Source: Acidobacteriota bacterium (lineage in GTDB: Bacteria > Acidobacteriota > UBA6911). Taken from it: a DNA stretch of 64,000 nt. Made by a program: the position numbers and the translations under genes. Position 1 is the first letter of the stretch. Each line of letters begins with the position of its first letter. The notes below the pieces were generated by a model that did no database searches, was not told where the DNA came from, and saw only the letters and a program-made list of their open reading frames with translations. Location of the stretch: the NCBI GenBank assembly GCA_003225335.1, contig QHZE01000451.1:2612-66611 (forward strand), written 5' to 3'. This document shows positions 30,791-61,180 of this stretch, one piece after another.

Positions 30791-31008
30791 AGCCGGGGGT
30801 GAGCGAAGCGAACCCCCGGGGTAGAAGAGGGACAACGATACGCACCCCGGCAGGGGTTGCAGGACCTCCCCGCCCTTGCCGGGGCGCGTTGGTCACGTAG
30901 GCAAGGGTTCCAGTGGTTCGCAAAAAGCGCTCACCCCTGGCTGAGTTCCTCCCGCTCCGGAGCGAAAGACCCTTTCGAGAAGAACGGCTCTTGTCTCAAT
31001 CGCAGCTC

Positions 31009-32436: not shown

Positions 32437-32511
32437 CCCCGCCTATTGCGGCTTGCGGATTGAAAAACGCCGGAAGAATTGGGGATTCGCGACTGTGGAT
32501 TGAGAAAACCT

Positions 32512-32563
32512 AGTCGATTTCAAATCCCGATTGTCAAATCCGCAATCCGCAATCCGCAATCGG
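32512..32563. repeat. family E element
   Basis: TTTCAAATCCCGATTGTCAAATCCGCAATCCGCAATCCGCAATCGG. Confidence 0.7.
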
Positions 32564-32564
32564 T

Positions 32565-37846: not shown

Positions 37847-38320
37847 ATGGCTGGCGAATCGGGCGCAGGCCCTGGGTTCTTCACTTCAAAACTGGAGCGT
37901 GCCATCGGATGGGCGCGGAAGTATTCCATCTTCCAATATCCTTTCGTAACAGCCTGCTGCGGCATGGAGTACATGGCGACCGCGGCAGGGCACTACGATG
38001 TGGACCGCTTTGGAGCAGGACTGCCGCGCTTTTCGCCAAGACAGGCCGATGTTCTCTTTGTGGTGGGAACCATCAGTCACAAGATCGCTCCTGTCCTCTA
38101 CCGCGTGTACGAACAGATGTGCGAACCCAAATGGGTGGTTGCGTTCGGGGTCTGTACGTGCACCGGAGGGTTCTACGACAACTACGCAACCGTCCAGGGG
38201 ATCGACACTATCATTCCTGTAGACGTTTACATTCCGGGCTGCCCGCCCCGCCCTGAAGCCGTTCTGGACGGGCTAATGAAGTTACAAGAAAAGATCGAGA
38301 ACCAGAAACAGCTTCTTTGA
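37847..38320 (+). CDS. nuoB: NADH-quinone oxidoreductase subunit B (alternative start 37787)
   Basis: N2-cluster ligands CCGMEYMA and ..GCPPRPEA.. The length fits from ATG 37847. Confidence 0.9.
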   Translation: MAGESGAGPGFFTSKLERAIGWARKYSIFQYPFVTACCGMEYMATAAGHYDVDRFGAGLPRFSPRQADVLFVVGTISHKIAPVLYRVYEQMCEPKWVVAFGVCTCTGGFYDNYATVQGIDTIIPVDVYIPGCPPRPEAVLDGLMKLQEKIENQKQLL

Positions 38321-38328
38321 GTCCGCTT

Positions 38329-39669: not shown

Positions 39670-40698
39670 ATGGCGCTTCTTTCCGTGCAGCTTCGAAATC
39701 GCCTGGGCCTCCTCAAGAGCTACGTGCTCCGCCAGTCTCACGTCCCTGGAGGGCCGCTGACGCTGGCGATTGAGAGCACTGCCAAGTGCAATCTTTTCTG
39801 CCCTATGTGCCCGCGTGAAAGCATTTATTTTCCTCCCAAAGACATGGAGTTGCCGGTTTTCAAGAAGATCATTGACGACGGGAAAGCCTTTCTCGAATTC
39901 GCGGTGCCCTATGGAGTCGGAGAGCCCCTGCTCAATCCTGAAATCTACGACATGATTGCTTACTGCAAGCAGGTGGGGGTGCCTAGCGGAATCTCCACAA
40001 ACGCGACGGTACTTACCGAAGAGGCCGGCCGTAAGCTCATCAAAGCCGGACTGGATTACATCATCCTGGCCTTTGACGGGGCGACGAAAGCGACCTACGA
40101 GAAATACCGGAAGGGAGCGGATTTCGAAAAAGTCCGCGCCAACATTCTGACCTTCCTGCGGGTGAAGAAGGAATTGCGATCGAAGATCTTCTGCATCCTG
40201 CAAATGGTCCGGCTCAATGAAAACCGCGCGGAGATCCCGGACCTGATCCGGATGTGGAGGGTGGAGGGGATCGACGAGATCCGGATAAAAAAGGACGAAG
40301 TCCACAACGAGGGAAGCGCGATCCCGGGCGATAGCGAAGAGCGGCCCCCGATGAAGCACCCGTGTTACCTGCTTTGGCGTGGTCCGATGTACATCCACTA
40401 CGACGGAACAGTGTTCCCTTGCTGCTACATCTATCCGGAAGAACCCATCGGCAATGTCAGAAAGAGCACGCTCCAGGAGATATGGAACTCGGACAAGATG
40501 GTCCAGTTGCGCGAGGCTCACATCCGGGGAGATCTGAGAGGCTACAAGGCATGCCAGAACTGCCCGGCAGCAAGGCCGAAGCTCCCGGTGACCCTGGGGA
40601 GCTTTCTGATAAACACCCACACAGTCAGGAAAACGATTCCATTTTTTGAGAGGCTTGCGCAGCTGCGCAATATTTCGGTTTTTGAGACGCTGAAATAG
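39670..40698 (+). CDS. radical SAM enzyme with C-terminal SPASM/twitch-like Cys-rich domain
   Basis: The start abuts the nuoD stop (TAAATG). CNLFCPMC (CX3CX2C) at about residue 40. C-terminal Cys cluster ..HPCYLL..FPCCYIY..KACQNCP. Confidence 0.8.
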   Translation: MALLSVQLRNRLGLLKSYVLRQSHVPGGPLTLAIESTAKCNLFCPMCPRESIYFPPKDMELPVFKKIIDDGKAFLEFAVPYGVGEPLLNPEIYDMIAYCKQVGVPSGISTNATVLTEEAGRKLIKAGLDYIILAFDGATKATYEKYRKGADFEKVRANILTFLRVKKELRSKIFCILQMVRLNENRAEIPDLIRMWRVEGIDEIRIKKDEVHNEGSAIPGDSEERPPMKHPCYLLWRGPMYIHYDGTVFPCCYIYPEEPIGNVRKSTLQEIWNSDKMVQLREAHIRGDLRGYKACQNCPAARPKLPVTLGSFLINTHTVRKTIPFFERLAQLRNISVFETLK

Positions 40699-42537: not shown

Positions 42538-42624
42538 CGCAAGATGCTCGAATCGGTCCTCCCAGTTTTTCAGAATTCTCGAAAAACTGAATTTTCAAGA
42601 CCTGACCCCAAAAGAGGAGAGGCG

Positions 42625-43581
42625 ATGCCGGGAAGAAAGCTGCGAGAAGAAAGAGAGCTTTTCTATACCTACCTGCGTCAGAACGGGATGAAGAAGACCC
42701 GGCAGAAGGATCTTATTCTGGAAGTGTTCCTTACCACGGAAGGACATCTCAGCGTCGAAGACCTGTACGCCCTGGTCAAGAAGAAGGACAGGAAGGTGGG
42801 AATCGTGACGGTCTTCAGGACCCTAAAAACCCTGACGGGCTGCGGCATTGCCCGGGAGATCGCCCTCGGCGACGGGCTCACGCGATTCGAGCACAGCTAC
42901 CACCATCCGCATCACCATCACATCATCTGCACGCAGTGCCGCAAGGCGATCGAGTTCGTTTCTCCCGAACTGGAGAGAATCCAGGAAGAAATCGTGCGCA
43001 AGTATCACTTTCAGCCGCTGCTCCACCGCTTACAAGTCTACGGCATCTGTGAAGATTGCCTGGAACACCGCCCGGCTCCCGAGCCTCCCCGGCTCGACAC
43101 CGAAAAGATCTTTGCCCGGGACGCGCTGAGGATGGCCATTCTGATGGAGACGCGCGGTCTCGCGTTCTACCGGGATGCCGCGCGCCGGAATCTGGATCCC
43201 GACGGCCGTGAAGTCTTGAAAAGGATTGTGGAGGAGGAAGAGAAGCATCTGGCGGACTTACAGGCTGAGCTGAAGCGGTTTTGCCGAATGGAGAAAGGGC
43301 TGGAAACGGCTCCGGTCTTCCTTCATTTTGACCCATGCGAGTTGGAACGTCTGGTGCCGGACCTCGAGGAATATGAAGTCGACGGAACGCTTCGTCTCGA
43401 CACGCGGCGTTCTCTGGAGATGGCCATGGTTCTGGAACGTCGCGCCGCGGAATTCTTCAAGGATTACTCCGCCAAGTTCCTCGAGACCGAAGGCAAGCGA
43501 ATCTTCGTGCAGTTTGCCGAAGAGGAACAGAGGCACTTCGAATCCATTCGCCGCCGCGCCGAAGAGCCCCTCTCCGTCTAA
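42625..43581 (+). CDS. Fur/PerR-family metalloregulator fused to a C-terminal ferritin-like (rubrerythrin-type di-iron) domain
   Basis: RBS AAAGAGGAGAGG plus ATG 42625. N-terminal Fur fold with HHPHHHHIICTQC and ICEDC. The C-terminal roughly 170 aa carries two E..ExxH di-iron motifs (EEEEKHLADL, EEEQRHFESI). Confidence 0.75.
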   Translation: MPGRKLREERELFYTYLRQNGMKKTRQKDLILEVFLTTEGHLSVEDLYALVKKKDRKVGIVTVFRTLKTLTGCGIAREIALGDGLTRFEHSYHHPHHHHIICTQCRKAIEFVSPELERIQEEIVRKYHFQPLLHRLQVYGICEDCLEHRPAPEPPRLDTEKIFARDALRMAILMETRGLAFYRDAARRNLDPDGREVLKRIVEEEEKHLADLQAELKRFCRMEKGLETAPVFLHFDPCELERLVPDLEEYEVDGTLRLDTRRSLEMAMVLERRAAEFFKDYSAKFLETEGKRIFVQFAEEEQRHFESIRRRAEEPLSV

Positions 43582-46011: not shown

Positions 46012-46803
46012 ATGGGAGATATTTCCGCAGCGTTTGAAGCCTTGTTTCGATGGATGCACGTCTTTGCTGGAATTCTATGGATAGGACATCTGTATTTTTT
46101 CAACTTCGTGAACGGCCAGTTCGAAGGAAAACTGGACGGAGGAACCAAGAAGACCGTGATTCCGGAGCTGCGGCCTCGCGCTCTGTTCTGGTTCCGATGG
46201 GGGGCTGCCTGGACCTGGGTCACCGGAGTCCTGCTCCTTGGCATCGTCTACTACATGAACGGCGTGGCGGTGGATACCAACAAAGAGTTTACGGCCGGGA
46301 CCATCGTGATGATCGCGGTTACCTTCCTGGCTGTTTTGCTTTACGATTTCCTGTTCAAGAGCCCCCTGGCGCAGAATATCAAGGTGGCCTCCACCGTGGC
46401 TTACGTCCTGCTCGCCATTGTGGTCGTGCTCTTCGCGACTTTCGGGAACTTCAGCTACCGGGGCACGCTGATTCATACCGGCGCCATGTTCGGAACCATA
46501 ATGGCTTTTAATGTGTGGTTCCGCATATGGCCGGCACAGCAAAAAATCATCAAGGCGATCAAGGAAGGCACCGCTCCCGATGCGAACCTCGTGAAACTCG
46601 CCGGACTCCGATCCCGGCAGAACACGTACCTGTCGCTCCCGCTGCTCTGGGCGATGGTGGGCCAGCACACCACCTACTTCGCCGGCGGGAACCTCGGGAT
46701 CTCAAGCAAGTACTACTGGATCGCCTGGCTGGCGCTCATCCCCGTCAGCTGGCATATCATCTTCCAGTGCTACAAGAAGGCAGGGAAGGTCTCCGGTTTC
46801 TAG
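46012..46803 (+). CDS. polytopic integral membrane protein (possibly a haem/cytochrome-associated membrane domain)
   Basis: 263 aa with at least 6 predicted TM helices and a His-containing first helix (WMHVFAGILWIGHLYFF). It precedes the cytochrome c peroxidase gene. Confidence 0.45.
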   Translation: MGDISAAFEALFRWMHVFAGILWIGHLYFFNFVNGQFEGKLDGGTKKTVIPELRPRALFWFRWGAAWTWVTGVLLLGIVYYMNGVAVDTNKEFTAGTIVMIAVTFLAVLLYDFLFKSPLAQNIKVASTVAYVLLAIVVVLFATFGNFSYRGTLIHTGAMFGTIMAFNVWFRIWPAQQKIIKAIKEGTAPDANLVKLAGLRSRQNTYLSLPLLWAMVGQHTTYFAGGNLGISSKYYWIAWLALIPVSWHIIFQCYKKAGKVSGF

Positions 46804-46821
46804 GCAACGTAACTCATTTAC

Positions 46822-46999
46822 CGCTCATTCACCGCAGAGACGCAGAGAACGCAGAGAAAGATTCGGCAAAATGACCCATGACAAATGAAGGATGAAAGAT
46901 TGCACGCGAGGAAACGAATCTGCGAAGCTGTCGTTGTTCATTTGTCATCGATCATTGTCAAACATTCTCCGCGTACTCCGCGTCTCTGCGGTGAGAACG
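46822..46999. repeat. composite: family A-variant arms (GACGCAGAGA) flanking an ATGACAAATGA-type palindrome
   Basis: The left arm spans 46822-46860 and the right arm 46965-46999. The inner palindrome spans 46868-46960. Confidence 0.75.
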
Positions 47000-47038
47000 G
47001 GAATCGCAACTAATGAAAATCTTAATTTTGGAAAGGCT

Positions 47039-48124
47039 ATGAGAAGCGTCTATTCATTGCGTGGTTTCAACATTCGTCTTGCGCTCTCCATCTTCTTCGT
47101 TTGTGCGCTGGCTCTGACTATTGCCGGTTGTGCCAGGAAGGAGCCGGAACAGCCGAAGGAGGAAGCGCCAAAAGCCCCCGCGCCGTATGTGATGAGTTTC
47201 CCGCTGGGCCTGGCTGCGGAGAGCGTCGTTGTCCCCCCTGATAATCCTATGACGGAGGAGAAGATCAAGCTGGGCAAGAGGCTGTTCTTCGAGAAGAAAC
47301 TCTCGACGGACCAATCCATTTCCTGCGCCTCTTGCCACATTCCCGAGCACGGTTTTTCAGACTCGCGCCAGTTTTCGGCCGGAGTCGGAGGCAAAACGGG
47401 AACCCGCCAGTCTCCCGCCGCCATAAACCGGGTTTTCAGCGCAGCGCAGTTCTGGGATGGCCGCGCGAAATCCCTCGAGGAACAGGCGCTCGGACCGGTT
47501 CAGAACCCGTTGGAAATGGCTATGCCGTCCATGGACGTGGTCGTCGAAAGACTCACGAGCGACCCAAGTTACTCCAGCGACTTCAAGGCGGCCTTTCCTC
47601 CGGACGGAGCCATCACGCCGGGAAACCTGGCCAAGGCGATTGCCAGCTTCGAGAGGACGATTGTGTCAGGGAAGAGCCCCTTCGATCGCTTTACGGCCGG
47701 AGACAAGACTGCGATGAGCGAGGCGGCACAGCGGGGCATGAAAATCTTTCGAGACGAGAAGAAGGGAAACTGCGAAACTTGCCATGCCTCTTTCAACTTC
47801 ACCGACGAAAACTACAATAATATCGGTGTGGGTATGGCGGCCAAGAAGCCCGATCTGGGCCGTTACGAAGTCACCAAGCTGGAAGGGCATCAAGGGGCAT
47901 TCAAAACCCCGACGCTCCGCGAGGTGGCCAACACCGCTCCCTACATGCATGACGGTTCTGAAAAGACCCTCGAAGAGGTCGTCGCCTTCTACAACAAAGG
48001 AGGCTACCGGAACAAGTGGCTTTCCCCGAAGATCAAACCCTTGAAGCTGACCAAGCAGGAGCAGCAGGACCTCGTGGAGTTTTTGAAGGCGCTCTCCGGT
48101 GAGGTGACCTGGTACGGGAAATAA
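47039..48124 (+). CDS. di-haem cytochrome c peroxidase (CCP/MauG family), lipoprotein
   Basis: Start ATG 47039; the ORF track start at 46892 runs through repeats. Lipobox LALTIAGC. Two CxxCH sites (CASCH, CETCH). Confidence 0.85.
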   Translation: MRSVYSLRGFNIRLALSIFFVCALALTIAGCARKEPEQPKEEAPKAPAPYVMSFPLGLAAESVVVPPDNPMTEEKIKLGKRLFFEKKLSTDQSISCASCHIPEHGFSDSRQFSAGVGGKTGTRQSPAAINRVFSAAQFWDGRAKSLEEQALGPVQNPLEMAMPSMDVVVERLTSDPSYSSDFKAAFPPDGAITPGNLAKAIASFERTIVSGKSPFDRFTAGDKTAMSEAAQRGMKIFRDEKKGNCETCHASFNFTDENYNNIGVGMAAKKPDLGRYEVTKLEGHQGAFKTPTLREVANTAPYMHDGSEKTLEEVVAFYNKGGYRNKWLSPKIKPLKLTKQEQQDLVEFLKALSGEVTWYGK

Positions 48125-48366: not shown

Positions 48367-49200
48367 TCAGCGGATCGTGGCTACAGGCTTGAGGTAACGC
48401 AGGGATTCCTTCAGGGGCCGGACTTGGAGGTTCTTCTTCACGGCGACCAGCTCTGCTGCGATGCTGATCGCGATTTCCTCCGGGGTTTCAGAGCCGATTT
48501 CAATTCCCACGGGAGCGTAGACGCGCTCGAAATTCGCAGGGTCCATCCCTTCGCGCTCCAGCGCCTCATAAAGAAGTTTTGTCTTGCGCCGGCTGCCGAG
48601 CAGGCCGATGTATTTGGCCGGTGTGTGTAGCGCAAAGCGCAGGCAGGCCAGATCAAAGTTGTGCCCGCGCGTCGCAATAAGGACATAAGAAGAGTCGTTG
48701 ACGGGCAGTTTTCGAAAGTTTTCTTCCCACGGGTCCACGTAAATGGTATCGGCCTGCGGAAAGCGCTCGGGATTGGCGTATTTGATCCTGTCGTCGACAA
48801 CGGCGATCTTGAATCCGATGCTCCTGGCAACCTGCGCCACGCACTGGCCCACATGACCGGCGCCGAAGACGTAGAGAACAGGATCGGGAAGTATCGGTTC
48901 CACGTAAACCTCCATGACGCCCCCGCAGAGAAGTCCGCTTTCTTCCGCGTCATCTTCGGTCAGATCAAACGTCAGCAATTTTGGCTTCTCGATGCGCATC
49001 ACCAGCAAGGCTTCGCGGCAAACCTCCGCCTCGGTGCAGCCTCCTCCGATGCTCCCCCACTGCCGGCCATCTTCATAAACGAGCATTTTTGCGGGGTCTT
49101 TGCGCGGTGTGGATCCTTTGCGCGCCACGATGGTCGCCAGCGCCGCCCGTTGGCCGCGTCGGCGGACTTCAACGATCTCTTCGTACAGGTCCTCAGGCAT
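48367..49200 (-). CDS. XdhC/CoxI-family accessory protein
   Basis: 277 aa. ..GGGCTEAEV.. and a Rossmann-like motif ..YVFGAGHVG.. are typical of XdhC. Confidence 0.8.
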   Translation of the reverse strand: MPEDLYEEIVEVRRRGQRAALATIVARKGSTPRKDPAKMLVYEDGRQWGSIGGGCTEAEVCREALLVMRIEKPKLLTFDLTEDDAEESGLLCGGVMEVYVEPILPDPVLYVFGAGHVGQCVAQVARSIGFKIAVVDDRIKYANPERFPQADTIYVDPWEENFRKLPVNDSSYVLIATRGHNFDLACLRFALHTPAKYIGLLGSRRKTKLLYEALEREGMDPANFERVYAPVGIEIGSETPEEIAISIAAELVAVKKNLQVRPLKESLRYLKPVATIR

Positions 49201-49254
49201 AATGACAAAGCATTATGCCACAAACTACGCGATCGTGTGATCTGCCCGATCTTG

Positions 49255-49470
49255 AGGTAGTGGGTCATTTTGAATTTGAAAAGGGCCCACTACCCAAAAT
49301 TCACTCGACCATCCTGTCCATCCAGTTATCCTGTCTGGCTGTTTAACCCGTCGCAGCATGCGCGGGGCAAATAGGACGGATCGGACAGGATAACAGGATT
49401 TACTGGATTGGGGGGGACAGATGACAAAATTCGGTAGTGGGTCATTTTGAATTGAAAATGACCCAGTACC
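49255..49470. repeat. MITE-like element: 34 bp terminal repeats GTGGGTCATTTTGAATTTGAAAAGGGCCCACTAC flanking about 140 bp with an internal inverted repeat (GGATAACAGGA / TCCTGTTATCC)
   Basis: The terminal copies lie at 49255-49290 and 49433-49470 and are near-identical. There is no coding capacity. Confidence 0.6.
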
Positions 49471-49502
49471 GATCTTGACGGGCGCAATCAGAACTGCGAG
49501 TC

Positions 49503-49570
49503 ACCAGTACATGATTTCACAAATACGCCAACGTATTTTCCCGGCCTTTCGCCCCGCCGGGGTGAAATAC
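49503..49570. repeat. family H element
   Basis: TACATGATTTCACAAATACGCCAACGTATTTTCCCGGCCTTTCGCCCCGCCGGGGTGAAATACG. Confidence 0.6.
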
Positions 49571-49571
49571 G

Positions 49572-49820
49572 TCAGGCAGCCGGTACCAGCTTCTTGTTCA
49601 GGAACTGAATCAGTTTATTGACGGAATCCAGGTTTTCCGGAATGATCTCGTCATCTTGAAACCTGATCCCATATTGTTCTTCAATGAAGGCCACCAACTC
49701 CAGAACGCCGGTCGAGTCAATGAGGCCCTTTTCCAGGAAGGAGTCATCATCTGAAAACTGACTGTCTTCCACACCAAACAAGAAGTTGTCGATGATAAAT
49801 CGTCGCAGTTCTTCTCTCAC
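49572..49820 (-). CDS. acyl carrier protein-like
   Basis: 82 aa acidic protein. ..LIDSTGVLELV.. matches the phosphopantetheine attachment Ser motif (DSx). Confidence 0.7.
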   Translation of the reverse strand: MREELRRFIIDNFLFGVEDSQFSDDDSFLEKGLIDSTGVLELVAFIEEQYGIRFQDDEIIPENLDSVNKLIQFLNKKLVPAA

Positions 49821-49823
49821 ATT

Positions 49824-51761
49824 TCACCACATTAGATGTTCGATGAATTGGTCTACCATGAGCTGAGTAGAAAGGACACCAGCCAGCGCCATGTTGTCTT
49901 TGATTCCGATCGCCAGCCCTCGGCGGAACTTATCAACTAGCTTTTGGACCGCGGCAGGCCGGAAGAGGCCAGTCTTTCGAATTTGCGCCGGGGCCAGAGC
50001 CGCCTCGACATAATCGCGACCTCTGCCGTTGGAGAAGAAGCTTTTTCCCTCCGGAGCGCGGTAAGGTTGCTTCGGTCTCTTCTCGACGGAACGGGGAATG
50101 AGGTGTTCCGCACAGCGCTTCAAAATGTATTTCTCATTCAACACTTTCATCTTGAGATTGGGTGGGATCAATGCCGCCAGCTGGACTACCCGATGATCCA
50201 GGAAAGGGAAGCGTCCCTCGACCGAATGCGCCATTGCCATCCGGTCTCCCTGCGATGAGAGAATGTAACCGGGTAACAGAAACATTGCTTCCAGGTACTG
50301 TGCCCTGCAAAAAGAGTCCCAACGGTAATAGTCTTCGGGTAAATTCGCTTCGAGCTCCGTGTAGCAGTTTTCCGAGCGGAGCTCGTCTTTGACATCGTCC
50401 GAAAAGAGGACTTTGATTCTTGAAGTCAGCATCCATCGAGGAAGGTGCGAGAAGAAGGGGTTCGACAGGTCCTCCGCGTTGACGTGAAAGAACGCCTTGA
50501 GATATTCCGGAGGCTGCTCTTGCAAAATGGGAAGATACGGATAGAGCCGCTTGAGAAGCAGAGGGCGGACCTGAGAATCCGGCTGCACTCCCCAGAACCG
50601 GCGTATCTTGGTCTCCTTGAAGATGTCATAGCCGCCCAGGATCTCATCGGAGCCTTCGCCTGTCAGAACCACCTTGTAGCCCTGCTCCCGGACCAGGCGG
50701 GAAAGAATAAAAAATGGAGAGGGCGCCGTTCGAAGGATCGGCTTTTCCGTTTGCCAGATGACACGAGGAAATACCTGCCCGATGTCGTCGTAGCTGCAAC
50801 GGATCTCGTGACGCTCGGTTCCTAAAAACCGGCTCACCTCTTCCTGATACGGCGCTTCGTTGAATTCCGGATCATCGAACGTGACGGAGAAAGCCTTGAG
50901 AGGTGTGTTCGTAAATCTTCGAACGATTGCTGTGATTATGCCGGAATCGAGCCCGCCACTCAAATAGGCGCCCACCGGCACGTCCGCTCGAAGCCGAATG
51001 CGTGTCGCGTCCACGAGCAGGTCCAGAAGCTGCTCGCTATACTCCTGCTCTTCCCTGCGTCCGATCTTGCGGATTTCTGAAGCAGGCGAATAGTCCAGCT
51101 GCCAGTATCGCTGGGATTTGATGCAGCCGTTCTGAACCGTCATCGAATGGCCCGCAGGCAGCTCTTGAATCCCACGAAAGATGGTCCTTGGGGGCAACGT
51201 GAACCAGAAAGTGAAAACCTGATCCAGCCCTACGCGATCCACCTCGCGTGATACTCCGGGATGGCGAAGCAGCGACTTTATTTCCGAAGCAAAGAGAAAC
51301 ACGCCATTGCAGGTTGTATAGAAGAGCGGCCTAACCGCTAAACGGTCCCGTGAAAGAAATAGCTTCTGATTCTTCGAATCCCAGATGGCAAAGGCCCACT
51401 GGCCGTTAAAGTCCTTGACGCAATCCTCCCCTTTTTCCTCATAGTGGTGCAGGATGACTTCCGTATCCGAGTGGGTTGCAAAACGATGCCCCTTGCGGAT
51501 GAGGTCCTCTCTCAATTCGAGATAGTTGAAGATTTCACCGTTAAAAGTAATCCAAAGAGACCGATCCTCATTGGGCATTGGCTGGTGCCCACAGGCCAAA
51601 TCGATGATGCTGAGCCGGGCGTGCGCCAGCCCGACGTTCCGATCAATATGGATTCCGCAATCGTCCGGTCCGCGGTGCCGGACAGTTTGGATCATCCGGC
51701 GCAGAAGGTCAGGATCGGCGCCCGCATCATCAAAGTTCAGCACTCCGGCTATCCCGCACAT
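49824..51761 (-). CDS. asparagine synthetase (glutamine-hydrolysing) family amidotransferase
   Basis: N-terminal MCGIAG (Ntn Cys2). PP-loop ..YLSGGLDSG... 645 aa. Confidence 0.85.
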   Translation of the reverse strand: MCGIAGVLNFDDAGADPDLLRRMIQTVRHRGPDDCGIHIDRNVGLAHARLSIIDLACGHQPMPNEDRSLWITFNGEIFNYLELREDLIRKGHRFATHSDTEVILHHYEEKGEDCVKDFNGQWAFAIWDSKNQKLFLSRDRLAVRPLFYTTCNGVFLFASEIKSLLRHPGVSREVDRVGLDQVFTFWFTLPPRTIFRGIQELPAGHSMTVQNGCIKSQRYWQLDYSPASEIRKIGRREEQEYSEQLLDLLVDATRIRLRADVPVGAYLSGGLDSGIITAIVRRFTNTPLKAFSVTFDDPEFNEAPYQEEVSRFLGTERHEIRCSYDDIGQVFPRVIWQTEKPILRTAPSPFFILSRLVREQGYKVVLTGEGSDEILGGYDIFKETKIRRFWGVQPDSQVRPLLLKRLYPYLPILQEQPPEYLKAFFHVNAEDLSNPFFSHLPRWMLTSRIKVLFSDDVKDELRSENCYTELEANLPEDYYRWDSFCRAQYLEAMFLLPGYILSSQGDRMAMAHSVEGRFPFLDHRVVQLAALIPPNLKMKVLNEKYILKRCAEHLIPRSVEKRPKQPYRAPEGKSFFSNGRGRDYVEAALAPAQIRKTGLFRPAAVQKLVDKFRRGLAIGIKDNMALAGVLSTQLMVDQFIEHLMW

Positions 51762-53002
51762 ACTGCCGCCTGTCTCGCTCCGTTATTTGTGCCCTGACAC
51801 CCTTTTTGTGCCCAGTCATCCGCAGCTGAACCAGTCGATGCCCCGCTTTTGCTGACAGTCCCGTTGACTGCGGCTCTCCGGAACGAGGAGATCTGCTTAT
51901 CATTCCCTGTCTCTGAGAGGTCACAGAACCGCATCCACCATTCTCCTTCCAAGCGTGTGAGGAAGGCGTTTCCCCGATGGATCACGTCCAGAATATCCTT
52001 GTTTCGCGACTGTACTAACACTCCGCCGGGCCAGGTAAAGCCACAATGGCTGCTTGACAGTTCCAGAGCGAACTCCGGCTCTGTTTGCCCGGAAACTGCG
52101 ATCGCCCCTTGCTGCCACGCCTGGTAGAAGAGATGATTTAAGACATGAGCGATTGAGCGAACTTTGCCTCCGATTTGCAACACCTGGCTTACCGCGCCCG
52201 GTTTTGCGTAATACAAATACCAGCCCAATATTTCTCCCTTGACACTTTGAACCATTCCTTTCCGAAGTTCCCCGTGCTTCTTCTGTTCCCCCGCCTTTTT
52301 CAGAAGCCACTTGAGTGAATCGAGGTCGTATTCGGGCTGCAATGCCCGATGCCCGGCCAAATGGCGAAGGCACCAAATAATAGCCTCTTCAGCGGGCTCT
52401 GCTTCGATGCTTTCAGGCTCCGAAAAGCAATAAGGTCCGTCCGCAATCCGAACAGCCGCGGCATCCAGGGCCCAAGAGATCGGGCGCGAAGCCTTGGCAA
52501 CAGTTCCCAGCAGCCTCCGGTTTTCACAAAGATTCACCAGGTACTGGGCAGGCCGCAGTATCCGGGTCCACAGCGGGGAGTACAACATCGCGACACTTCC
52601 CCCCGCAGCCTCCCAGACTCTCCGGGCCAACCCGTTTGCTCCGTCGGAAAAGGATAAATCCTGCGGTCCGGAAAAGAATTTCCGGAATAGTTCTAGCGCA
52701 GCAAACGGAAGGCCTTTGCTCCGATCCACCACGATCTGTGAAGCAACCGCCGCCTTAATCGACTTTCCCATGAACCTCATAGGGCGGGGCATTACACCTA
52801 CGAAACCGGCAATTCGCCGGTCGGAGTTTTCATAGACCAAGGACGGGAAATCCCCTGACTGCCAAGGATTCAAGAAAAAGACTTCCTCAAGATAGCGGCT
52901 CAGCGAATCCAGCGGAACTGATTCCCGGAGGTGAAACTCTTTCGCCCAAAGCTCAGCAACCTCGCCAGTATCGTCCTTCTGAAACTCTCTTACTCGGCCC
53001 AT
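51749..53002 (-). CDS. GNAT/FemAB-like acyltransferase-fold protein (tentative)
   Basis: 417 aa. A weak GNAT-like segment (..IAGFVGVMP..). It overlaps the asnB-like start by 13 nt. Confidence 0.35.
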   Translation of the reverse strand: MGRVREFQKDDTGEVAELWAKEFHLRESVPLDSLSRYLEEVFFLNPWQSGDFPSLVYENSDRRIAGFVGVMPRPMRFMGKSIKAAVASQIVVDRSKGLPFAALELFRKFFSGPQDLSFSDGANGLARRVWEAAGGSVAMLYSPLWTRILRPAQYLVNLCENRRLLGTVAKASRPISWALDAAAVRIADGPYCFSEPESIEAEPAEEAIIWCLRHLAGHRALQPEYDLDSLKWLLKKAGEQKKHGELRKGMVQSVKGEILGWYLYYAKPGAVSQVLQIGGKVRSIAHVLNHLFYQAWQQGAIAVSGQTEPEFALELSSSHCGFTWPGGVLVQSRNKDILDVIHRGNAFLTRLEGEWWMRFCDLSETGNDKQISSFRRAAVNGTVSKSGASTGSAADDWAQKGCQGTNNGARQAAVCAG

Positions 53003-53250
53003 CCTGGATTAGCCGCTCCAATCTGCCAGTTAGTTTCTGTCGCAAGACCAAGGATCCCGAAGGGGGTCCAGCAGGAAAGCCCAGGGCGCAAGCCTTGGGT
53101 TCAAGGTCCGGATTGCAGCTTGAAGTACAAATTCACCTCATAAGAACCCCAATGCAAAAACAGAAAGCAAACAGATGAAAGGCTACGAAGCAAACAGCAT
53201 GCCAGCTTTGCTTTGGAAACGAGGAAAGGTAAATTCCGAAATTCGAGCGG

Positions 53251-53279
53251 CCTGGAGCCAGGAAGCTTCTGGCTCCAGG
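53251..53279. promoter_or_regulatory. perfect 29 bp palindrome CCTGGAGCCAGGAAGCTTCTGGCTCCAGG in an otherwise gene-free 740 bp spacer
   Basis: Exact dyad symmetry centred on AAGCTT. Either an operator-like site or a hairpin. Confidence 0.3.
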
Positions 53280-53739
53280 CCGGGCTGAAGCGGCAAAGAT
53301 TTACCATCAGTGGAATTCAAGTACCGTGGGCTGTGAGCCGACTGCAATGCTTTGCGGTTGGCCTGGAGGCGTAGTCCATTCTGGATCATCGGCTGATCGA
53401 AATTCGCCGCGAAGATTCGGCCAAATACAAGATGCGGGAAAAACACGTACTCAAGGAAGGTTTCCGCGATCTCGTGACGGAGGTATTGCAGCGGGCCGAG
53501 CAGACCTATGGCGCTCCCGTCAGTCCCTGTTTCGTGAATCCGGAAGCAGGCCGGGCGCATGAAACGCTCTCCACTTGGAGCGGCGCTTGCATGCGGATAT
53601 TTCGATCCCGGCGCCGTGGAACCATTGGTCCCAAGCTGAAGAAAAGCGGCGGCGCATCCGCCGGGGCTTGCGAGGACATGTCCGCGTTGGACATTGTTTC
53701 TGTGCAGTTACTCACCATCAGTTCTTGACGACAGATCTG

Positions 53740-55290
53740 ATGCTGATCCCAAACCTTTTGGAGTCCACCGCTGGCCGGTTCCCGAACAAGGACGCGCTGT
53801 GGTACAAGCAGGAATGGATGACCTATGCGCAACTGGAAACGTATGCCAATCGCCTTGCGCGTGCCTTGAGGAAGCTCGGAGTGAAACAATGCGACCGCGT
53901 AGCCTTGCTGTATGAAAACTCTTTTTACTACGTCATCGCCCACTTCGCCATCTTCAAGGCCGGGGCCGTAAGCGTTTCCTTGAACACCGAGACTTCGGCG
54001 CAATCACTGGCGTATTTGCTCCATGATTGCGAAGCCAAAGCGATTTTTGCCGCTGGAAAATATTTGCCGCTGCTTGCGCAAACGGAAGCCCAGCTCTCCC
54101 ATCTCGAACATGTCTTCACGGACCGGGATGCTTTGGCGTTTCCTCCGGGGTTCACGCGCCTTCGCGCGGCGGCCATCGAAGATCTATGGTCCCAAGGCCC
54201 GGGTGACCCACCTTCGTGTGAAGTAAGGGAAGCGGATCTCGGTTCGCTGGTGTATACCTCCGGTAGTACCGCCAAGCCCAAGGGCGTGATGCTGTCGCAT
54301 CAAAATCTCGTCAGCAATGCCCAAGCTGTGCTGCAATACATGCAGTTGACGCCGGAGGATCGAGTTCTCTGCGTCCTGCCCTTCTACTACATCTATGGCA
54401 CGTCGCTGCTTTATACCCATTTCGCGGCGGGCGGCTCAGTCGTCATTGAAAACCGTTTCGCGTATCCCAACGTGGCGCTGGATACCTTAGAAAAAACCGC
54501 GGCCAGTGGTTTCGCGGGCGTTCCTTCCACCTTCGCCATTCTGCTGACCAAATCCACGCTGCGGAGGCGCGTTTTTCCCAGCCTTCGCTACGTGACTCAG
54601 GCGGGAGGGGCCATGGCGCCTGCGCTGCAAAAGGAGGTGGCCGAAGCATTCCAACCAGCGCGGCTTTTCATCATGTACGGGTGCACTGAGGCCGCGCCAC
54701 GCCTTACCTATTTGGAGCCTGAGGCCTTGCCCTTGAAATGGGGTTCCATCGGCAAGGCCGTTCCCGGCGTCGAAGTCATTGTCGCGGATGAACGCGGAAA
54801 CCGGCTTCCGCCGGGAAAAACCGGGGAAATAGCGGCGCGTGGGCCGAACATCATGATGGGTTACTGGAAGGACCCGCAGGCCACCGCCGAGGCCATCCGC
54901 AACGGCTGGTACTTCACCGGCGATTTGGGTCGCGAGGACGAGGAAGGATATCTCTTCGTCGTAGGCCGCAGCAAGGACATGATCAAGACTGCCGGCAACA
55001 GCGTCAGCGCGCAGGAAATCGAAGAAGTGCTGATGGAATTGGAAGGCGTTTCCGAGGCCGCCGTGATCGGCATTCCGGACGCCATTCTCGGAGAGGGCAT
55101 CAAGGTTTTTGTGGTCCCTAAGCCAGGACGAGCGCTTGATCCGGAAGCGATAAAGGCGAAGCTGAAAATCCGTCTGCCCGTCTTCAATCAGCCGGCGTGG
55201 ATAGAAGTACGGGACGATTTGCCTAAGAGCGTGGCGGGGAAGGTTTTGAAGACCATCCTCAGGGATGAGGCCTGCTCATCGCTGGGATGA
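53740..55290 (+). CDS. AMP-dependent synthetase/ligase (acyl-CoA/acyl-ACP ligase)
   Basis: Start ATG 53740; the track start at 53575 is an artifact. Motifs YTSGSTAKPKG and ..GYWKD.. ..TGD.. Confidence 0.85.
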   Translation: MLIPNLLESTAGRFPNKDALWYKQEWMTYAQLETYANRLARALRKLGVKQCDRVALLYENSFYYVIAHFAIFKAGAVSVSLNTETSAQSLAYLLHDCEAKAIFAAGKYLPLLAQTEAQLSHLEHVFTDRDALAFPPGFTRLRAAAIEDLWSQGPGDPPSCEVREADLGSLVYTSGSTAKPKGVMLSHQNLVSNAQAVLQYMQLTPEDRVLCVLPFYYIYGTSLLYTHFAAGGSVVIENRFAYPNVALDTLEKTAASGFAGVPSTFAILLTKSTLRRRVFPSLRYVTQAGGAMAPALQKEVAEAFQPARLFIMYGCTEAAPRLTYLEPEALPLKWGSIGKAVPGVEVIVADERGNRLPPGKTGEIAARGPNIMMGYWKDPQATAEAIRNGWYFTGDLGREDEEGYLFVVGRSKDMIKTAGNSVSAQEIEEVLMELEGVSEAAVIGIPDAILGEGIKVFVVPKPGRALDPEAIKAKLKIRLPVFNQPAWIEVRDDLPKSVAGKVLKTILRDEACSSLG

Positions 55291-55295
55291 ACACA

Positions 55296-55445
55296 GGCCC
55301 GTGGCACGGGCGTCTCGCCCGTGGGAAACGAGGATCTAACCTGGGTCCGGGACGGCATGCCACGGCTCGCTTGTGAATGCCTTGGGTTCGCCGCTACTAA
55401 TAGCGAGTGAGCCTCATAGCAGTCATTCACGGGCGGGACGCCCGT
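55296..55445. repeat. family F element
   Basis: CCCGTGGCACGGGCGTCTCGCCCGTGGG ... CTAATAGCGAGTGAGCCTCATAGC ... CACGGGCGGGACGCCCGTGCC. Confidence 0.7.
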
Positions 55446-55512
55446 GCCAGGATAGCTTCGTCGCAGGGCCCGGCCATGATACGAACCAACCCATGACAAT
55501 GGGAATCGGCTC

Positions 55513-56505
55513 ATGACGACAAAGACCTTTTCCAAGGACGTCTTGCAACTGGACTGCGCTGCCGAGGTGGAGCGCATCTCACGCGAGCTTCGGGACTTCG
55601 CCCAGAAATGCCGCAAACGCGGCGCGGTGGTGGCCCTGTCCGGTGGCATCGACAGCTCGACTACGGCAGCTCTGTGCGTCGCAGGGCTGGGCAAGGAACG
55701 GGTTTTCGGTCTGCACATGCCGGAACGCGATTCCTCCGGGGAAACGCCGAGGCTGAGTCAGGCGGTTTCCACACAGTTCGGGTTCGCCTCGGTGATGGAA
55801 GAGCTGACCCCTATATTGGAATCGCTGGGCTGCTATGCCCGCCGAGACGAGGCCATCAGCTCCGTGATCCCGGAGTACGGACCGGGATGGAAGGCCAAAA
55901 TCGTCCTGCCCAAGGTGACCGAACACACGGGGTTCAACTTTTATTCCATCGTGGCCCAATCCCCTGACGGCGCGCTGATCAAAGAGCGGCTGCCACATGA
56001 GGCCTATCTGCAAATCGTGGCGGCCACCAACTTCAAGCAGCGCGTGCGCAAGATGCTGGAGTATTACCACGCAGACCGGCTGAACTACCTGACCACAGGC
56101 ACCCCGAACCGGCTGGAATATGACCAGGGATTTTTCGTCAAATTGGGCGATGGCGCGGCGGACATCAAGCTCATTGCTCATCTTTACAAGTCCCAGGTCT
56201 ACCAGTTGGCCGAATATCTCGGCGTGCCCGAAAAAGTCCGGAAGCGGTCTCCGACCACGGATACCTATTCCCTGCATCAAAGCCAGGACGAATTTTACTT
56301 CTCCCTGCCTTATGAGCAGATGGACCTTTGCCTGTACGGCAAGAACAACGGAATCCCGGCCGCGGCCGTGGCCGAGCTGATCGGCCTTTCGGAGGAACAG
56401 GTGGAGCGGGTATATAAGGACATCGACGTGAAGCGGCGATCCACTCTCTACCTGCACTCGAACCCCCATTTAGTGGCCGCGATCCCCGAGATCCGGGGTA
56501 TTTAG
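55513..56505 (+). CDS. NAD+ synthetase-like PP-loop ATP pyrophosphatase
   Basis: PP-loop ALSGGIDSS. NadE-like overall. 330 aa. Confidence 0.7.
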   Translation: MTTKTFSKDVLQLDCAAEVERISRELRDFAQKCRKRGAVVALSGGIDSSTTAALCVAGLGKERVFGLHMPERDSSGETPRLSQAVSTQFGFASVMEELTPILESLGCYARRDEAISSVIPEYGPGWKAKIVLPKVTEHTGFNFYSIVAQSPDGALIKERLPHEAYLQIVAATNFKQRVRKMLEYYHADRLNYLTTGTPNRLEYDQGFFVKLGDGAADIKLIAHLYKSQVYQLAEYLGVPEKVRKRSPTTDTYSLHQSQDEFYFSLPYEQMDLCLYGKNNGIPAAAVAELIGLSEEQVERVYKDIDVKRRSTLYLHSNPHLVAAIPEIRGI

Positions 56506-58445: not shown

Positions 58446-59165
58446 GTGACCTCCGCCGGCAAGACCTGCTACGCGCTGTCGCTGGGCTCGGTGGAATACC
58501 GCCGGGCGCTCGAGCTGCAAATGCAGGTTTGCGAAATGAAAAAGAAAGGCTTCCGGGAGGATGTCCTGCTTCTCCTGGAACACCCGCCGACGATAACACT
58601 GGGCCGGAACGGCGGGTGGCATCATCTTCTGGCTTCTAAGGAGGGGCTGGCGGCCCGAGGGGTCGAATGCTTTGAAGTCGATCGTGGCGGCGACATTACG
58701 TTCCACGGCCCGGGACAAGTCGTCGGATATCCTCTGCTGCAGTTGGAAGGGCGGGAGCGTGATGTTCACCGCTACATGAGGTGTCTCGAGGATGTGCTCC
58801 TACGGGTGCTTGAAGCCTATGGAATAGAGAGCGCGCGGCGGGAAGGCCTCACCGGAGTATGGACCGGCCAGGGGAAGATCGCAGCCATGGGCGTTCACAT
58901 CAGTCGCTGGATCACGCGTCACGGTTTCGCCCTTAACGTGCGGACGGACCTTGCGTATTTCGACCTTATCGTTCCCTGCGGCATCGCAGGGGCGGGCATC
59001 GCATCCATGAGCTCTATTCTCCGGCGGAATGTTGAAGTCCAGGAGGTGGCCGATTTGCTGGTGGAGGAGTTCGGTTCGGTTTTCGAGCGCCGGGTGGTCC
59101 GAGTGAGCGAAGGCGATCTCTACAAAGCAATGCAGACGCATGCCCACCAAAACGCAGTTGCATGA
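58446..59165 (+). CDS. lipB: lipoyl(octanoyl) transferase
   Basis: ..RGG..T.HGPGQ.VGY.. and ..GVW..KIAA.G.. are LipB motifs. 239 aa. Confidence 0.8.
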   Translation: MTSAGKTCYALSLGSVEYRRALELQMQVCEMKKKGFREDVLLLLEHPPTITLGRNGGWHHLLASKEGLAARGVECFEVDRGGDITFHGPGQVVGYPLLQLEGRERDVHRYMRCLEDVLLRVLEAYGIESARREGLTGVWTGQGKIAAMGVHISRWITRHGFALNVRTDLAYFDLIVPCGIAGAGIASMSSILRRNVEVQEVADLLVEEFGSVFERRVVRVSEGDLYKAMQTHAHQNAVA

Positions 59166-60105
59166 GCTTTACTACTGGATGCAATTGACCCGCATCCTGG
59201 AGGAAAAGCTGGTCGCTCTCTACCGCACCGGCAAGGTGGTAGGGGGTGTTTACACGGGCCGGGGACAGGAAGCTATCGCGATCGGGACCGCGTACGCACT
59301 CGAGAAGGACGATCTGCTTGCCCCCATGATCCGGAACCTTGGCTCCTTGCTCGTGCGCGGGTTTTGCCCCGAGGATGCCCTGGCGCAGTACCTGGCGCGT
59401 GCCACCAGCCCAACCCGCGGACGCGATTGCAACTTGCACATGGGGGACTTGGGAAAGGGCGTGATCGCGCCGATAAGCATGCTGGGAGCGCTGATCCCTG
59501 TCATGGCTGGGGCGGCTCTGGCGGTCAAGATTCAAAAAAAGAGGAGCGTGGCTCTGACCTACATAGGGGACGGCGGCACGAGCACGACCGATTTTCACGA
59601 GGGGCTCAACTTTGCCGCCGTCCGCAAAGTGCCTCTGGTTCTGGTGATCGAGAACAACGGTTGGGCGTATTCGACTCCGGTTGCCAGGCAAACAGCCAAT
59701 CCCGAGTTCGTGATTCGGGCACAGGCATACGGCGTGGCAGGGTTTCAAGTGGACGGAAACGACGTGCTCGCAGTGTACGAGGCGGCGTGCAAAGCCATGG
59801 ATCACGCCCGGCAGGGAAACGGGCCTGTTCTTATCGAAGCCAAGACCATGCGCATGAGGGGGCACGCCGAACACGACGACGCGTGGTACGTGCCCAGAGA
59901 CGAAATCGAACACTGGAAGACCCGGGACCCTGTCGACAGATTCGAACGTTACCTGCGCGAAACCGGATCGATGTCTGAGGAAGAACGGAATACAATTTTG
60001 CGCCGGATCAACGGCGAAGTGGACAGGGCCGCAGAGCTTGCCGAACAGGGCCCGTTGCCGTCGGGAGAAGACGCGGCAGGTGGTGTGTATCATGAGACAA
60101 CATGA
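59140..60105 (+). CDS. 2-oxoacid dehydrogenase E1 component alpha subunit (TPP-dependent), copy 1
   Basis: TPP motif ..IGDGGTSTTDFHEGLNFA...NN. It overlaps the lipB end by 26 nt. Confidence 0.85.
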   Translation: MPTKTQLHELYYWMQLTRILEEKLVALYRTGKVVGGVYTGRGQEAIAIGTAYALEKDDLLAPMIRNLGSLLVRGFCPEDALAQYLARATSPTRGRDCNLHMGDLGKGVIAPISMLGALIPVMAGAALAVKIQKKRSVALTYIGDGGTSTTDFHEGLNFAAVRKVPLVLVIENNGWAYSTPVARQTANPEFVIRAQAYGVAGFQVDGNDVLAVYEAACKAMDHARQGNGPVLIEAKTMRMRGHAEHDDAWYVPRDEIEHWKTRDPVDRFERYLRETGSMSEEERNTILRRINGEVDRAAELAEQGPLPSGEDAAGGVYHETT

Positions 60106-61180
60106 CAAAGATCTTCATCCGTCCGCGAAGGTTCCTTCCGTGCGCGAGGAGAAATTGACGGAGGGACGGGAGAGCGTCGGCGTGGCCCTGCAGAGCGCCC
60201 TCGTCCACTCCATAGGCGCGGAACCGCTGCGGCGAATGCTCTACTACATGATGCTGACGCGCGAGCTGGAGAATCGAATCGAAAGAAAGCTGTACCGCCA
60301 AGGGAAAATTGTGGGCGGCGTGTATGTCGGCCGCGGGCAGGAAGCCATCAGCGTCGGGTCCTGCACCCTCACTCGGCCGCAGGATGTCGTATGTCCATCC
60401 CATCGCGATATGGCAGCATTTCTGATCCGGGGCATGACCCCGCCGAGGATACTTGCGCAGTACATGGGCAGGCGCGACGGCTACACCCGCGGAAGAGACG
60501 GCAACATGCATATGGGAGACCTCAAGCTGCACGTGATTTCGTTTGTCAGCATGCTGGCCGACAACGTCCCGGTCGCGGCCGGAGTCGGGCTCGCGTTCAA
60601 GATGCGCAAGGAAGACAGGGTGGTCCTCTGCTATTTCGGCGATGGCGCCACCAGTCGCGGAGACTGGCACGAGGGGCTGAACTTTGCCTCTGTCGAGAAG
60701 TTGCCGGTCGTTTACATTTGCAACAACAATCAGTTTGCGTATTCGACGCCCGTGCAATTACAGATGGCGGTGGAGAACGTGGCCGATCGCGCTCCGGCTT
60801 ACGGGATGCTGGGAGAAATCGTGGACGGCAACGACGTTCTCGCCGTTTATGACGCGACCCGAAGAGCGATCGAACGGGCGCGCGCCGGGCTCGGACCCAC
60901 TCTGCTCGAATGCAAGACGTTTCGCATGACTGGTCATTCCGCCCACGATGACGCCTCGTATGTCTCCAGGGAGGTCTTCGAAGAGTGGGAGCGAAAAGAT
61001 CCTATTTCCCGCTACCAGCGGGTTCTCTTGCAGGAGGAGATTATCTCGCAGGAGAAGATCGACGCGATGCAGCGGCAGGTAATTGAGGAGATAGACCAGG
61101 CAGTAGATTGGGCGGAAAGCAGCCCTTATCCGGAGCCGGAGGATTGCTTGCGCGGAGTCTATTATGAGGATGACGAATAA
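60092..61180 (+). CDS. 2-oxoacid dehydrogenase E1 alpha subunit, tandem paralogue (copy 2) with about 45 aa N-terminal extension
   Basis: Start ATG 60092. TPP motif ..FGDGATSRGDWHEGLNFA..NN. About 45% identical to copy 1 by eye. Confidence 0.85.
   Translation: MRQHDKDLHPSAKVPSVREEKLTEGRESVGVALQSALVHSIGAEPLRRMLYYMMLTRELENRIERKLYRQGKIVGGVYVGRGQEAISVGSCTLTRPQDVVCPSHRDMAAFLIRGMTPPRILAQYMGRRDGYTRGRDGNMHMGDLKLHVISFVSMLADNVPVAAGVGLAFKMRKEDRVVLCYFGDGATSRGDWHEGLNFASVEKLPVVYICNNNQFAYSTPVQLQMAVENVADRAPAYGMLGEIVDGNDVLAVYDATRRAIERARAGLGPTLLECKTFRMTGHSAHDDASYVSREVFEEWERKDPISRYQRVLLQEEIISQEKIDAMQRQVIEEIDQAVDWAESSPYPEPEDCLRGVYYEDDE

Follow-up and report, generated by a model that had tools for sequence, protein, structure and literature searches.

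Do genes that resemble those for asparagine and NAD synthesis, when they sit beside an acyl carrier protein (ACP), an AMP-forming ligase and a putative acyltransferase, belong to primary metabolism or to a pathway of their own? The question is raised by a locus from an Acidobacteriota bacterium (assembly GCA_003225335.1), in which five such genes occupy positions 49,572 to 56,505 of a 64,000-nucleotide stretch of contig QHZE01000451.1 (positions 2,612 to 66,611), the whole of which was analysed here and is called the window below. An earlier note, made from the sequence alone, had read them as an acyl-amide biosynthetic module recalling the accessory genes of exosortase/PEP-CTERM exopolysaccharide loci. 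The results presented here support the view that the five genes form a real, widely co-conserved set and are not housekeeping AsnB and NadE, whereas the proposed link to exosortase systems was not sustained. We consider it somewhat more probable than the contrary that they make up a module which depends on a dedicated ACP and builds and transfers an amide-bearing acyl group. In this window the set is a mosaic of two lineages.

Results

Five genes in two divergent units

A listing of open reading frames (ORFs) recovered all five genes where the earlier note had placed them. On the minus strand lie a stand-alone ACP (49572-49820; 82 amino acids, aa), an AsnB-like glutamine amidotransferase (49824-51761; 645 aa) and a protein of 417 aa that is predicted to be a tandem-GNAT acyltransferase (51749-53002). 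The two tight junctions described for this strand, a gap of 3 nucleotides (nt) between the ACP and AsnB-like genes and an overlap of 13 nt between the AsnB-like and GNAT genes, were both confirmed. On the plus strand follow the AMP-forming ligase, a putative acyl-ACP synthetase (53740-55290; 516 aa), and a putative amidating enzyme of the PP-loop type that resembles NadE (55513-56505; 330 aa). The ATG at 53740 was taken as the ligase start; it lies inside a longer ORF that opens with TTG and is backed by the homologues. The layout is that of two divergent units (ACP, AsnB-like and GNAT on one strand, ligase and NadE-like on the other) and not of a single operon.

The ACP, AsnB-like, ligase and NadE-like families are all encoded in less than 7 kb of the window. 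Pfam domains were found in each: PP-binding in the ACP, GATase_7 and Asn_synthase in the AsnB-like protein, AMP-binding and AMP-binding_C in the ligase, and NAD_synthase in the NadE-like protein. The motifs read from the translations were likewise present, namely 'GLIDSTGV' in the ACP and 'MCGIAG', 'SGGLDS' and 'GEGSDE' in the AsnB-like protein.

A recurrent four-gene cassette

Homologues of the NadE-like protein are abundant: a search returned at least 8,000 candidates, and a metagenome scan for relatives gave at least 600 matching stretches. In all four contexts that were sampled, genes for AsnB, ligase, an ORF of about 86 aa and NadE occurred together, along with hexapeptide-repeat acyltransferases, and three of the four lay within polysaccharide genes (Wzy_C, GT4, flippase, FdtA/DegT and polysaccharide deacetylases). 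The ORF of about 86 aa scores as an ACP in locus L090.

An independent metagenome set, selected by the NadE-like protein alone, yielded 79 loci, of which 19 had at least 5 kb on both sides. Every one of these 19 carried an AsnB-like gene, 18 an ACP and 17 a ligase, with all three present in 17; across the whole set at least one partner gene was found in 65 of the 79. The genes in synteny with NadE-like were AsnB-like, ACP and ligase, and never those of NAD metabolism. Acyltransferases varied more, with a tandem GNAT in two or three of the 19 well-flanked loci and a hexapeptide transferase in five. To judge from these neighbourhoods, several acyltransferases serve as alternative partners, the tandem GNAT being one, and hexapeptide-repeat transferases fill its place in polysaccharide loci.

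The cassette is also present in cultured rhizobia. A tblastn search of plasmids found it in Mesorhizobium, in the order nadE-asnB-AMP-binding-ACP, in Shinella zoogloeoides, and on pSymB of Sinorhizobium meliloti, where the order is AsnB-ACP-ligase-NadE and the products are 53%, 47%, 39% and 57% identical to the respective window proteins. By gene content, order and replicon, the pSymB genes appear to correspond to the operon asnB-smb20651(ACP)-smb20650(ligase)-nadE1. Ramos-Vega and colleagues reportedly named asnB and nadE1 as flanking genes there in 2009, and C12 and C18 acylation is said to have been seen in E. coli. SMb20651 is cotranscribed with the ligase SMb20650, whose expression in E. 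coli gave acylated SMb20651, and SMb20650 cannot substitute for FadD (PMC7232532). The function of SMb20651 has been said to need further investigation (PMC5686131). We found no literature that assigns a function to the asnB-nadE-ACP-ligase cassette, and the subject of a paper on NadE and PII does not include the NF002048/PRK00876 subfamily to which the NadE-like protein is assigned below. As a kind, the cassette is known though uncharacterised; what is new is its five-gene form with the tandem GNAT, and the mosaic of the window.

Two further proteins recur beside the cassette. One, of 275-302 aa and lacking any Pfam or NCBIfam match, follows NadE directly or past one hexapeptide gene in several cassettes of the polysaccharide type (L090:10022-10849, L088:10648-11517 and L092:10663-11571) and recurs in 4/19 of the well-flanked loci. 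The other is a VOC (glyoxalase-fold) protein, present in four of the 19 and seen beside the cassette at L089:4622-5044 and L098:8992-9468 and in L100, L136, L142 and L148; in S. meliloti it is encoded upstream of asnB on the opposite strand.

The tandem GNAT and the five-gene form

The 417 aa protein had no significant match in Pfam or NCBIfam (PF13527 only at E = 0.039), and some of its homologues carry a precomputed PF13527 match. Structure prediction indicates a tandem GNAT, with two GNAT folds in one chain, resembling Eis and N-myristoyltransferase. It had been called GNAT/FemAB-like. The GNAT half of that description agrees with the predicted fold; no FemAB-type structure was among the matches listed, nor was there a FemAB match in Pfam. 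The predicted folded core spans residues 1-354. The C terminus (residues 355-417; 51749-51940) is a disordered tail of low complexity, about 60 residues long, that runs into the start of the AsnB-like gene, and similar variable tails occur in some homologues.

Hundreds of homologues of this protein were found in soil and groundwater metagenomes, and a GNAT-like profile search of 1.84 billion representatives gave 2,496 clusters. We obtained 80 genomic loci with an alignment of the GNAT family and then screened them with the window proteins. All five genes lay within about 8 kb in 12 loci, to which two cut contigs and three directly looked-up loci (L001, L093 and L094) can be added; the five-gene loci include, besides these three, L009, L011, L013, L016, L029, L044, L061, L065, L074, L077 and L079. 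The five-gene form occurs in at least seven phyla, among taxa that comprise Acidobacteria, Binatia, Burkholderiales, Verrucomicrobiia, Planctomycetales, Ignavibacteriota and Gemmatimonadetes. The gene order takes at least five forms, the closest relatives having GNAT-AsnB-ACP-ligase-NadE and others permutations of it. Clustering of all ORFs across the five-gene loci revealed no sixth conserved neighbour.

A culturable example is plasmid p1 of S. zoogloeoides XJ20, where genes MOE34_RS23260-23280 make up the five-gene form. Upstream of asnB it encodes a 'hypothetical protein' of 369 aa that belongs to the GNAT family, with 30% identity (E = 1e-55) to the window GNAT. Genes for exopolysaccharide transport and glycosyltransferases adjoin the module there.

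Most of the other GNAT-family loci (most of L014-L087) have a distant ligase alongside (26-30% identity) and no NadE. In L003 (7067-11107) the order is luciferase-like monooxygenase, ligase, ACP, GNAT, an arrangement that apparently represents a second, undescribed type of ACP-dependent module. The neighbours across loci suggest that the GNAT family is generally partnered with a private ligase (and with an ACP where genes were called), and that a subset recruited AsnB and NadE. Three fusions were also found: P0367 (1731 aa) is a polyketide synthase/non-ribosomal peptide synthetase protein that ends in a carrier (PP-binding) domain followed by the tandem GNAT, whereas in P0260 (801 aa) the tandem GNAT is joined to an ATP-grasp (ATPgrasp_Ter) domain and in P0281 (761 aa) to Acetyltransf_6. 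From the ligase and ACP neighbours, the PP-binding fusion and the Eis/N-myristoyltransferase-like fold we infer that the GNAT acts on carrier-bound acyl groups.

Evidence for a mosaic origin

The five window proteins differ in their closest relatives. Compared with the GNAT-type (A) loci L093, L094 and L001, identities are 70-72% for AsnB and 66-73% for ACP but 35-39% for the ligase and 56-58% for NadE. Against the polysaccharide-type (P) locus L090 the picture is reversed, with 73% for the ligase, 79% for NadE and 47% for both AsnB and ACP; the window ACP is 40-47% identical to polysaccharide-type ACPs in general. Neighbour-joining trees agree, placing the window AsnB and ACP inside the GNAT-type clade and the window ligase and NadE as sisters of L090 inside the polysaccharide-type clade. 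On these comparisons the module is a mosaic, with GNAT, AsnB and ACP from the A lineage and ligase and NadE from the P lineage.

The spacer between the GNAT and ligase genes provides the trace of this event. These 737 nt had been described as holding no convincing gene; they contain a truncated second AsnB gene of the P type, a pseudogene that reveals the mosaic origin and was missed. It lies on the plus strand at about 53276-53728, is a 3' remnant corresponding to about the last quarter of the gene, and has an in-frame stop near 53372. The segment 53378-53728 (116 codons) matches residues 522-637 of the L090 AsnB at 48% identity (E = 2e-29), as against 26% with the resident AsnB, and with a rhizobial AsnB as query the match reaches back through the stop to about 53276. 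The stub ends 12 nt before the ligase ATG, in agreement with the AsnB-then-ligase order of L088, L090 and L092. Two ORFs in the spacer were set aside: 53432-53728 (+), which has a weak FeThRed_B match (E = 0.01), is the stub read from an internal ATG, and 53183-53560 (-) has no family match.

At the exact 5' end of the stub lies an inverted repeat (53248-53282), which may mark a rearrangement junction. It had been reported as a perfect 29 bp palindrome. The arms are indeed perfect, over 14 nt each (53248-53261 and 53269-53282), but the 7 nt centre, GAAGCTT, is not self-complementary. The repeat is far beyond chance (by a rough estimate, about 2e-5 such repeats would be expected in the spacer), and folded as RNA it gives -37.5 kcal/mol (z = -4.5). 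Its sequence is unique within the window and no run of T follows it on either strand, so that a repeated element and a terminator were both rejected. No structured RNA matched Rfam at gathering thresholds anywhere in the window. A sigma-70-like promoter was not found in the spacer either, a result that is uninformative for a probable Acidobacterium.

The other duplicates have vanished. In L088, L090 and L092 an ORF of 86-107 aa stands between ligase and NadE; the same position in the window, where P-type cassettes have their ACP gene, is a gap of 222 nt (55291-55512) in which neither blastx nor DNA alignment detected an ACP relic. The same two methods found no relic of a ligase or NadE gene downstream of the resident ACP (49201-49571). 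Of the duplicates in the merged sets, AsnB is dead, and the ACP as well as the ligase and NadE of the GNAT type are gone; through these complementary losses each of the five functions is left with a single intact copy.

Conservation among strains and relatives

Four other metagenome contigs, from different samples, share the arrangement of the window at 99.4-99.8% identity. Across the four near-identical strains the five genes have no indels, and the ratios of synonymous to non-synonymous variants are 3:0 for ACP, 5:0 for GNAT, 3:2 for AsnB, 3:4 for the ligase and 2:2 for NadE. By comparison, the AsnB stub has eight variant sites in 351 nt, three of which are indels, and a non-synonymous to synonymous ratio of 4:1. 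This pattern, though made up of small numbers, points to purifying selection on the five genes and none on the stub.

Comparison with more distant relatives gave a similar picture. The window GNAT deviates at 0/58 conserved columns and the window NadE at 2/117, within the range of other members; one of these two deviations is the Pro220Leu change taken up in the Discussion. The window proteins retain family-invariant residues as well as ordinary members do.

Candidate activities of the individual proteins

The ACP passes the cut-off of PF00550 with 26.4 bits, and its best NCBIfam matches all fall below theirs. The highest of these is ACP_for_OlsHI (NF052616; 47 against 130 bits), the ACP of an ornithine-lipid pathway described in PMC12493201. 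We rejected a link to that pathway because of this score and because neither a GH3-like OlsH nor the hydrolase OlsI is in the cluster.

The AsnB-like protein passes the broad model TIGR01536 (520 against a cut-off of 267 bits) and none of the narrower ones, failing the AsnB equivalog NF006949 (338 against 499), the exosortase (XrtA)-associated TIGR03108 (470.5 against 816.9), TIGR03104 of NAGGN synthesis (397 against 570) and the lasso-cyclase equivalog. It keeps the N-terminal Cys, the glutaminase residues and the PP-loop, and its MCGIAG, SGGLDS and GEGSDE motifs align with E. coli AsnB (1ct9). The best solved relative is 7ylz, deposited as 'hydroxyamidotransferase' (5e-62), followed by 1ct9. 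The ligase falls below the cut-offs of both PRK06187 (443 against 476 bits) and TIGR03098 (410.3 against 592.35).

The NadE-like protein passes NF002048 (PRK00876 subfamily, 330 aa) from end to end, with 493 bits against 313. SGGIDSS, N173/R177, E202 and GFFVKLGDG align with the Pyrococcus horikoshii and Francisella enzymes, and 219 of the 330 residues superpose on solved NadE enzymes, the best structural match being 3fiu of Francisella, an entry titled NMN synthetase. It has in addition a three-stranded beta element at about 127-160 that is absent from the aligned part of solved NadE structures. In both the AsnB and the NadE alignments the catalytic residues are conserved, but these do not discriminate between substrates.

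Other features of the window

The genes next to the module are unrelated to it, being those of XdhC and a MauG-like di-haem peroxidase and, from a 2-oxoacid dehydrogenase, Lpd, LplA and E1. On one side, a Urate_ox_N-like protein and a MauG/MbnH-like di-haem peroxidase (46012-48124, +) and the maturation factor XdhC (48367-49200, -) adjoin the module; this group is kept beside it in strain contigs L004, L005 and L007 and apparently has nothing to do with it. On the other side, two successive E1-alpha (E1_dh) paralogues and one E1-beta (59140-61180, +) follow Lpd and a lipoate ligase. Genes for exosortase, PEP-CTERM proteins, polysaccharide synthesis, glycosyltransferases or export were not found among the larger window ORFs scanned, and the statement that the window has no exosortase or PEP-CTERM protein held to that extent.

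Further away, a 345 aa protein (42544-43581, +) has a FUR regulator domain and a weak C-terminal rubrerythrin/ferritin-like match (E = 1.4e-06, with no single domain stretch above threshold). A tandem trio of amidohydrolase-family paralogues of 431, 475 and 458 aa lies at 29360-33941 (-), a Complex1_49kDa-like protein with a radical SAM/SPASM enzyme directly after it at 38317-40698 (+), and at 7823-12166 (-), beside a sigma-54 activator, a protein of 1,447 aa with N-terminal Ser/Thr kinase and AAA_16 ATPase domains.

Discussion

The comparisons above establish the joint inheritance of a dedicated ACP and an AMP-forming ligase with two enzymes of the kinds that amidate carboxylates at the cost of ATP, and with an acyltransferase. 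They also establish that the acyltransferase partner is interchangeable, being a tandem GNAT, hexapeptide transferases or none adjacent, and that the cassette is often found in polysaccharide loci. They suggest a model whereby the ligase would load a carboxylic acid onto the ACP. The AsnB-like enzyme, with glutamine, would then convert a free carboxyl group, either on the tethered acyl chain or on the acceptor, into a carboxamide at the expense of ATP; the NadE-like enzyme could likewise amidate a free carboxyl of the tethered acyl group or the acceptor, spending ATP and using ammonia. Finally, the tandem GNAT would take the acyl group off the ACP and place it on an amine acceptor. Every chemical step here is inferred, as are the substrate, the acceptor and the functionality of the hybrid set. 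The VOC-family neighbour, which belongs to the same superfamily as methylmalonyl-CoA epimerase, and the presence of three carboxylate-activating enzymes together hint, speculatively, that the acyl substrate is di- or tricarboxylic. Possible acceptors for the five-gene form that stands alone are a cell-surface polymer, the head group of a lipid or a small amine.

Such a scheme has partial precedents, which we compare here by description. In Vibrio cholerae O1, rfbKLMNO has been proposed to make the tetronate N-acyl group of perosamine. Like the window module, that system pairs a dedicated ACP with an AMP-forming ligase and adds tailoring enzymes and an acyltransferase, in its case to decorate an amino sugar, but its tailoring enzymes are reductases and dehydrogenases where the window has two amidating enzymes. 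In oxytetracycline synthesis an AsnB-family amidotransferase of the OxyD type converts the free carboxyl group of a thioester-bound dicarboxylic acyl unit to a carboxamide, giving the malonamyl starter; unlike the window module, it belongs to a type II polyketide synthase and is not known to have a NadE-like partner. The NAGGN enzymes AsnO and Ngg (TIGR03104/TIGR03103) resemble the window set in that an AsnB-like protein and a GNAT-containing enzyme together produce an N-acyl amino-acid amide. Ngg has a GNAT plus ATP-grasp layout, the same as that of the P0260 fusion. To our knowledge, NAGGN synthesis involves no ACP, ligase or NadE-like enzyme.

The closest systems are the cassettes themselves. 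The P-type cassettes (L088, L089, L090, L092 and L100), which represent the source lineage of the window ligase, NadE-like gene and AsnB stub, are accompanied by left-handed beta-helix (hexapeptide) transferases where the window has a tandem GNAT, and lie among glycosyltransferases, Wzy_C, flippase, FdtA/DegT and polysaccharide deacetylases, none of which was found in the window. In S. meliloti no tandem GNAT adjoins the operon, and the four genes are collinear and of one lineage, in contrast to the two divergent units, mixed ancestry and pseudogene of the window.

Several observations weigh against a working acyl-amide module. As the S. meliloti operon has no adjacent acyltransferase, the output of the cassette may not always be acyl transfer. 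Between the window ligase and those that normally serve this ACP lineage, identity is only 35-39%, and cross-loading has to be assumed. The NadE-like protein keeps motifs that align with the canonical N-x3-R, G-F-F-x-K-x-G-D-G and PP-loop blocks, and it may therefore be a true NAD synthetase; it also carries a Pro220Leu change in the 'KPIAHLYK' block, at a position that is Pro in 117/119 relatives, and this change is fixed in the population. The variant counts from which selection was judged are small, at 2-7 sites per gene.

Some of these points would also fit a locus that is wreckage, namely two half-operons left by a rearrangement, with no working pathway and with ORFs too recently rearranged to have decayed. 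The AsnB pseudogene, the lost P-type ACP, the ligase of a distant lineage and the altered Pro220 of the NadE-like protein all agree with this, as do the divergent units and a 737 nt spacer without a sigma-70-like promoter match. However, what has been lost from one set is exactly what the other supplies, so that each of the five functions is still encoded by one intact gene, and decay is confined to the stub, which gathers indels and non-synonymous changes while the five genes have no indels and few non-synonymous changes. The window proteins keep family-invariant residues as ordinary members do, and the identical arrangement is found in four contigs from different samples at 99.4-99.8% identity. 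We regard wreckage as unlikely.

About equally improbable, in our view, is that the two units are independent of each other, GNAT-AsnB-ACP using a ligase encoded elsewhere and ligase-NadE serving a polysaccharide pathway elsewhere in the genome. The different ancestries of the two halves would be expected on this account, P-type cassettes normally pair with hexapeptide transferases in polysaccharide loci, and the cassette of S. meliloti stands without a neighbouring acyltransferase. Against it, the P-type unit lacks an ACP and an AsnB of its own, which accompany NadE-like genes in 18/19 and 19/19 loci respectively, and the A-type unit is missing the ligase and NadE genes found after it in its closest relatives L093, L094 and L001; the adjacency of the two units restores the full set.

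A role as accessory module of an exosortase/PEP-CTERM exopolysaccharide system, the analogy first drawn for this locus, now seems very unlikely. It drew on a real resemblance, in that TIGR03108 and TIGR03098 are the second-best NCBIfam matches of the AsnB-like protein and the ligase, the A-type ligase of L001 comes nearer to TIGR03098 (493/592), and some relatives adjoin exopolysaccharide genes. All scores are nevertheless below the curated cut-offs, the window ORFs scanned include no exosortase or PEP-CTERM protein, and no conserved neighbour accompanies the five-gene module. Moreover, in the exosortase type 1 set the partner of the ligase is a decarboxylase, and a NadE-like enzyme is not known to take that place.

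That an ordinary asparagine synthetase B and an NH3-dependent NAD synthetase lie near a ligase and an ACP by chance is scarcely credible: the models passed, TIGR01536 and NF002048, do carry the names of asparagine synthase and NAD(+) synthase, and public annotation labels the homologues asnB and nadE, but the linkage to ACP and ligase is tight and repeated with synteny that is never that of NAD metabolism, the AsnB equivalog NF006949 failed (338/499), the NadE-like protein has extra beta-strands that solved NadE structures lack in their aligned part, and the S. meliloti operon sits on pSymB, a replicon that can be removed once two essential genes are relocated, in an organism whose chromosome carries another NadE.

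There is also a wider reading, which we put forward tentatively and with less confidence than the module itself: NF002048/PRK00876 would describe not a NAD synthetase but a dedicated, AsnB-partnered amidating enzyme that acts on an acyl group tethered to a private ACP, and the cassettes would supply soil bacteria with an undescribed amide-bearing decoration that interchangeable acyltransferases place on polysaccharides or other amines. The four-gene cassette is very common, yet its sole studied member is the S. meliloti operon, and annotation pipelines tag two of its genes as primary-metabolism enzymes, a label that would be misleading if this reading is right. The problem is now narrower, framed by variable acyltransferases, frequent polysaccharide loci and a stand-alone five-gene unit with a tandem GNAT, and cultured hosts carry the cassette, namely S. 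meliloti, Mesorhizobium and, with the five-gene form, S. zoogloeoides. The window itself shows, cleanly and on a small scale, how two related gene sets can merge and each then shed its duplicated parts. The mosaic argues for the same chemistry in both lineages and, if the wider reading is true, the natural hybrid in the window would show that parts are functionally exchangeable between them.

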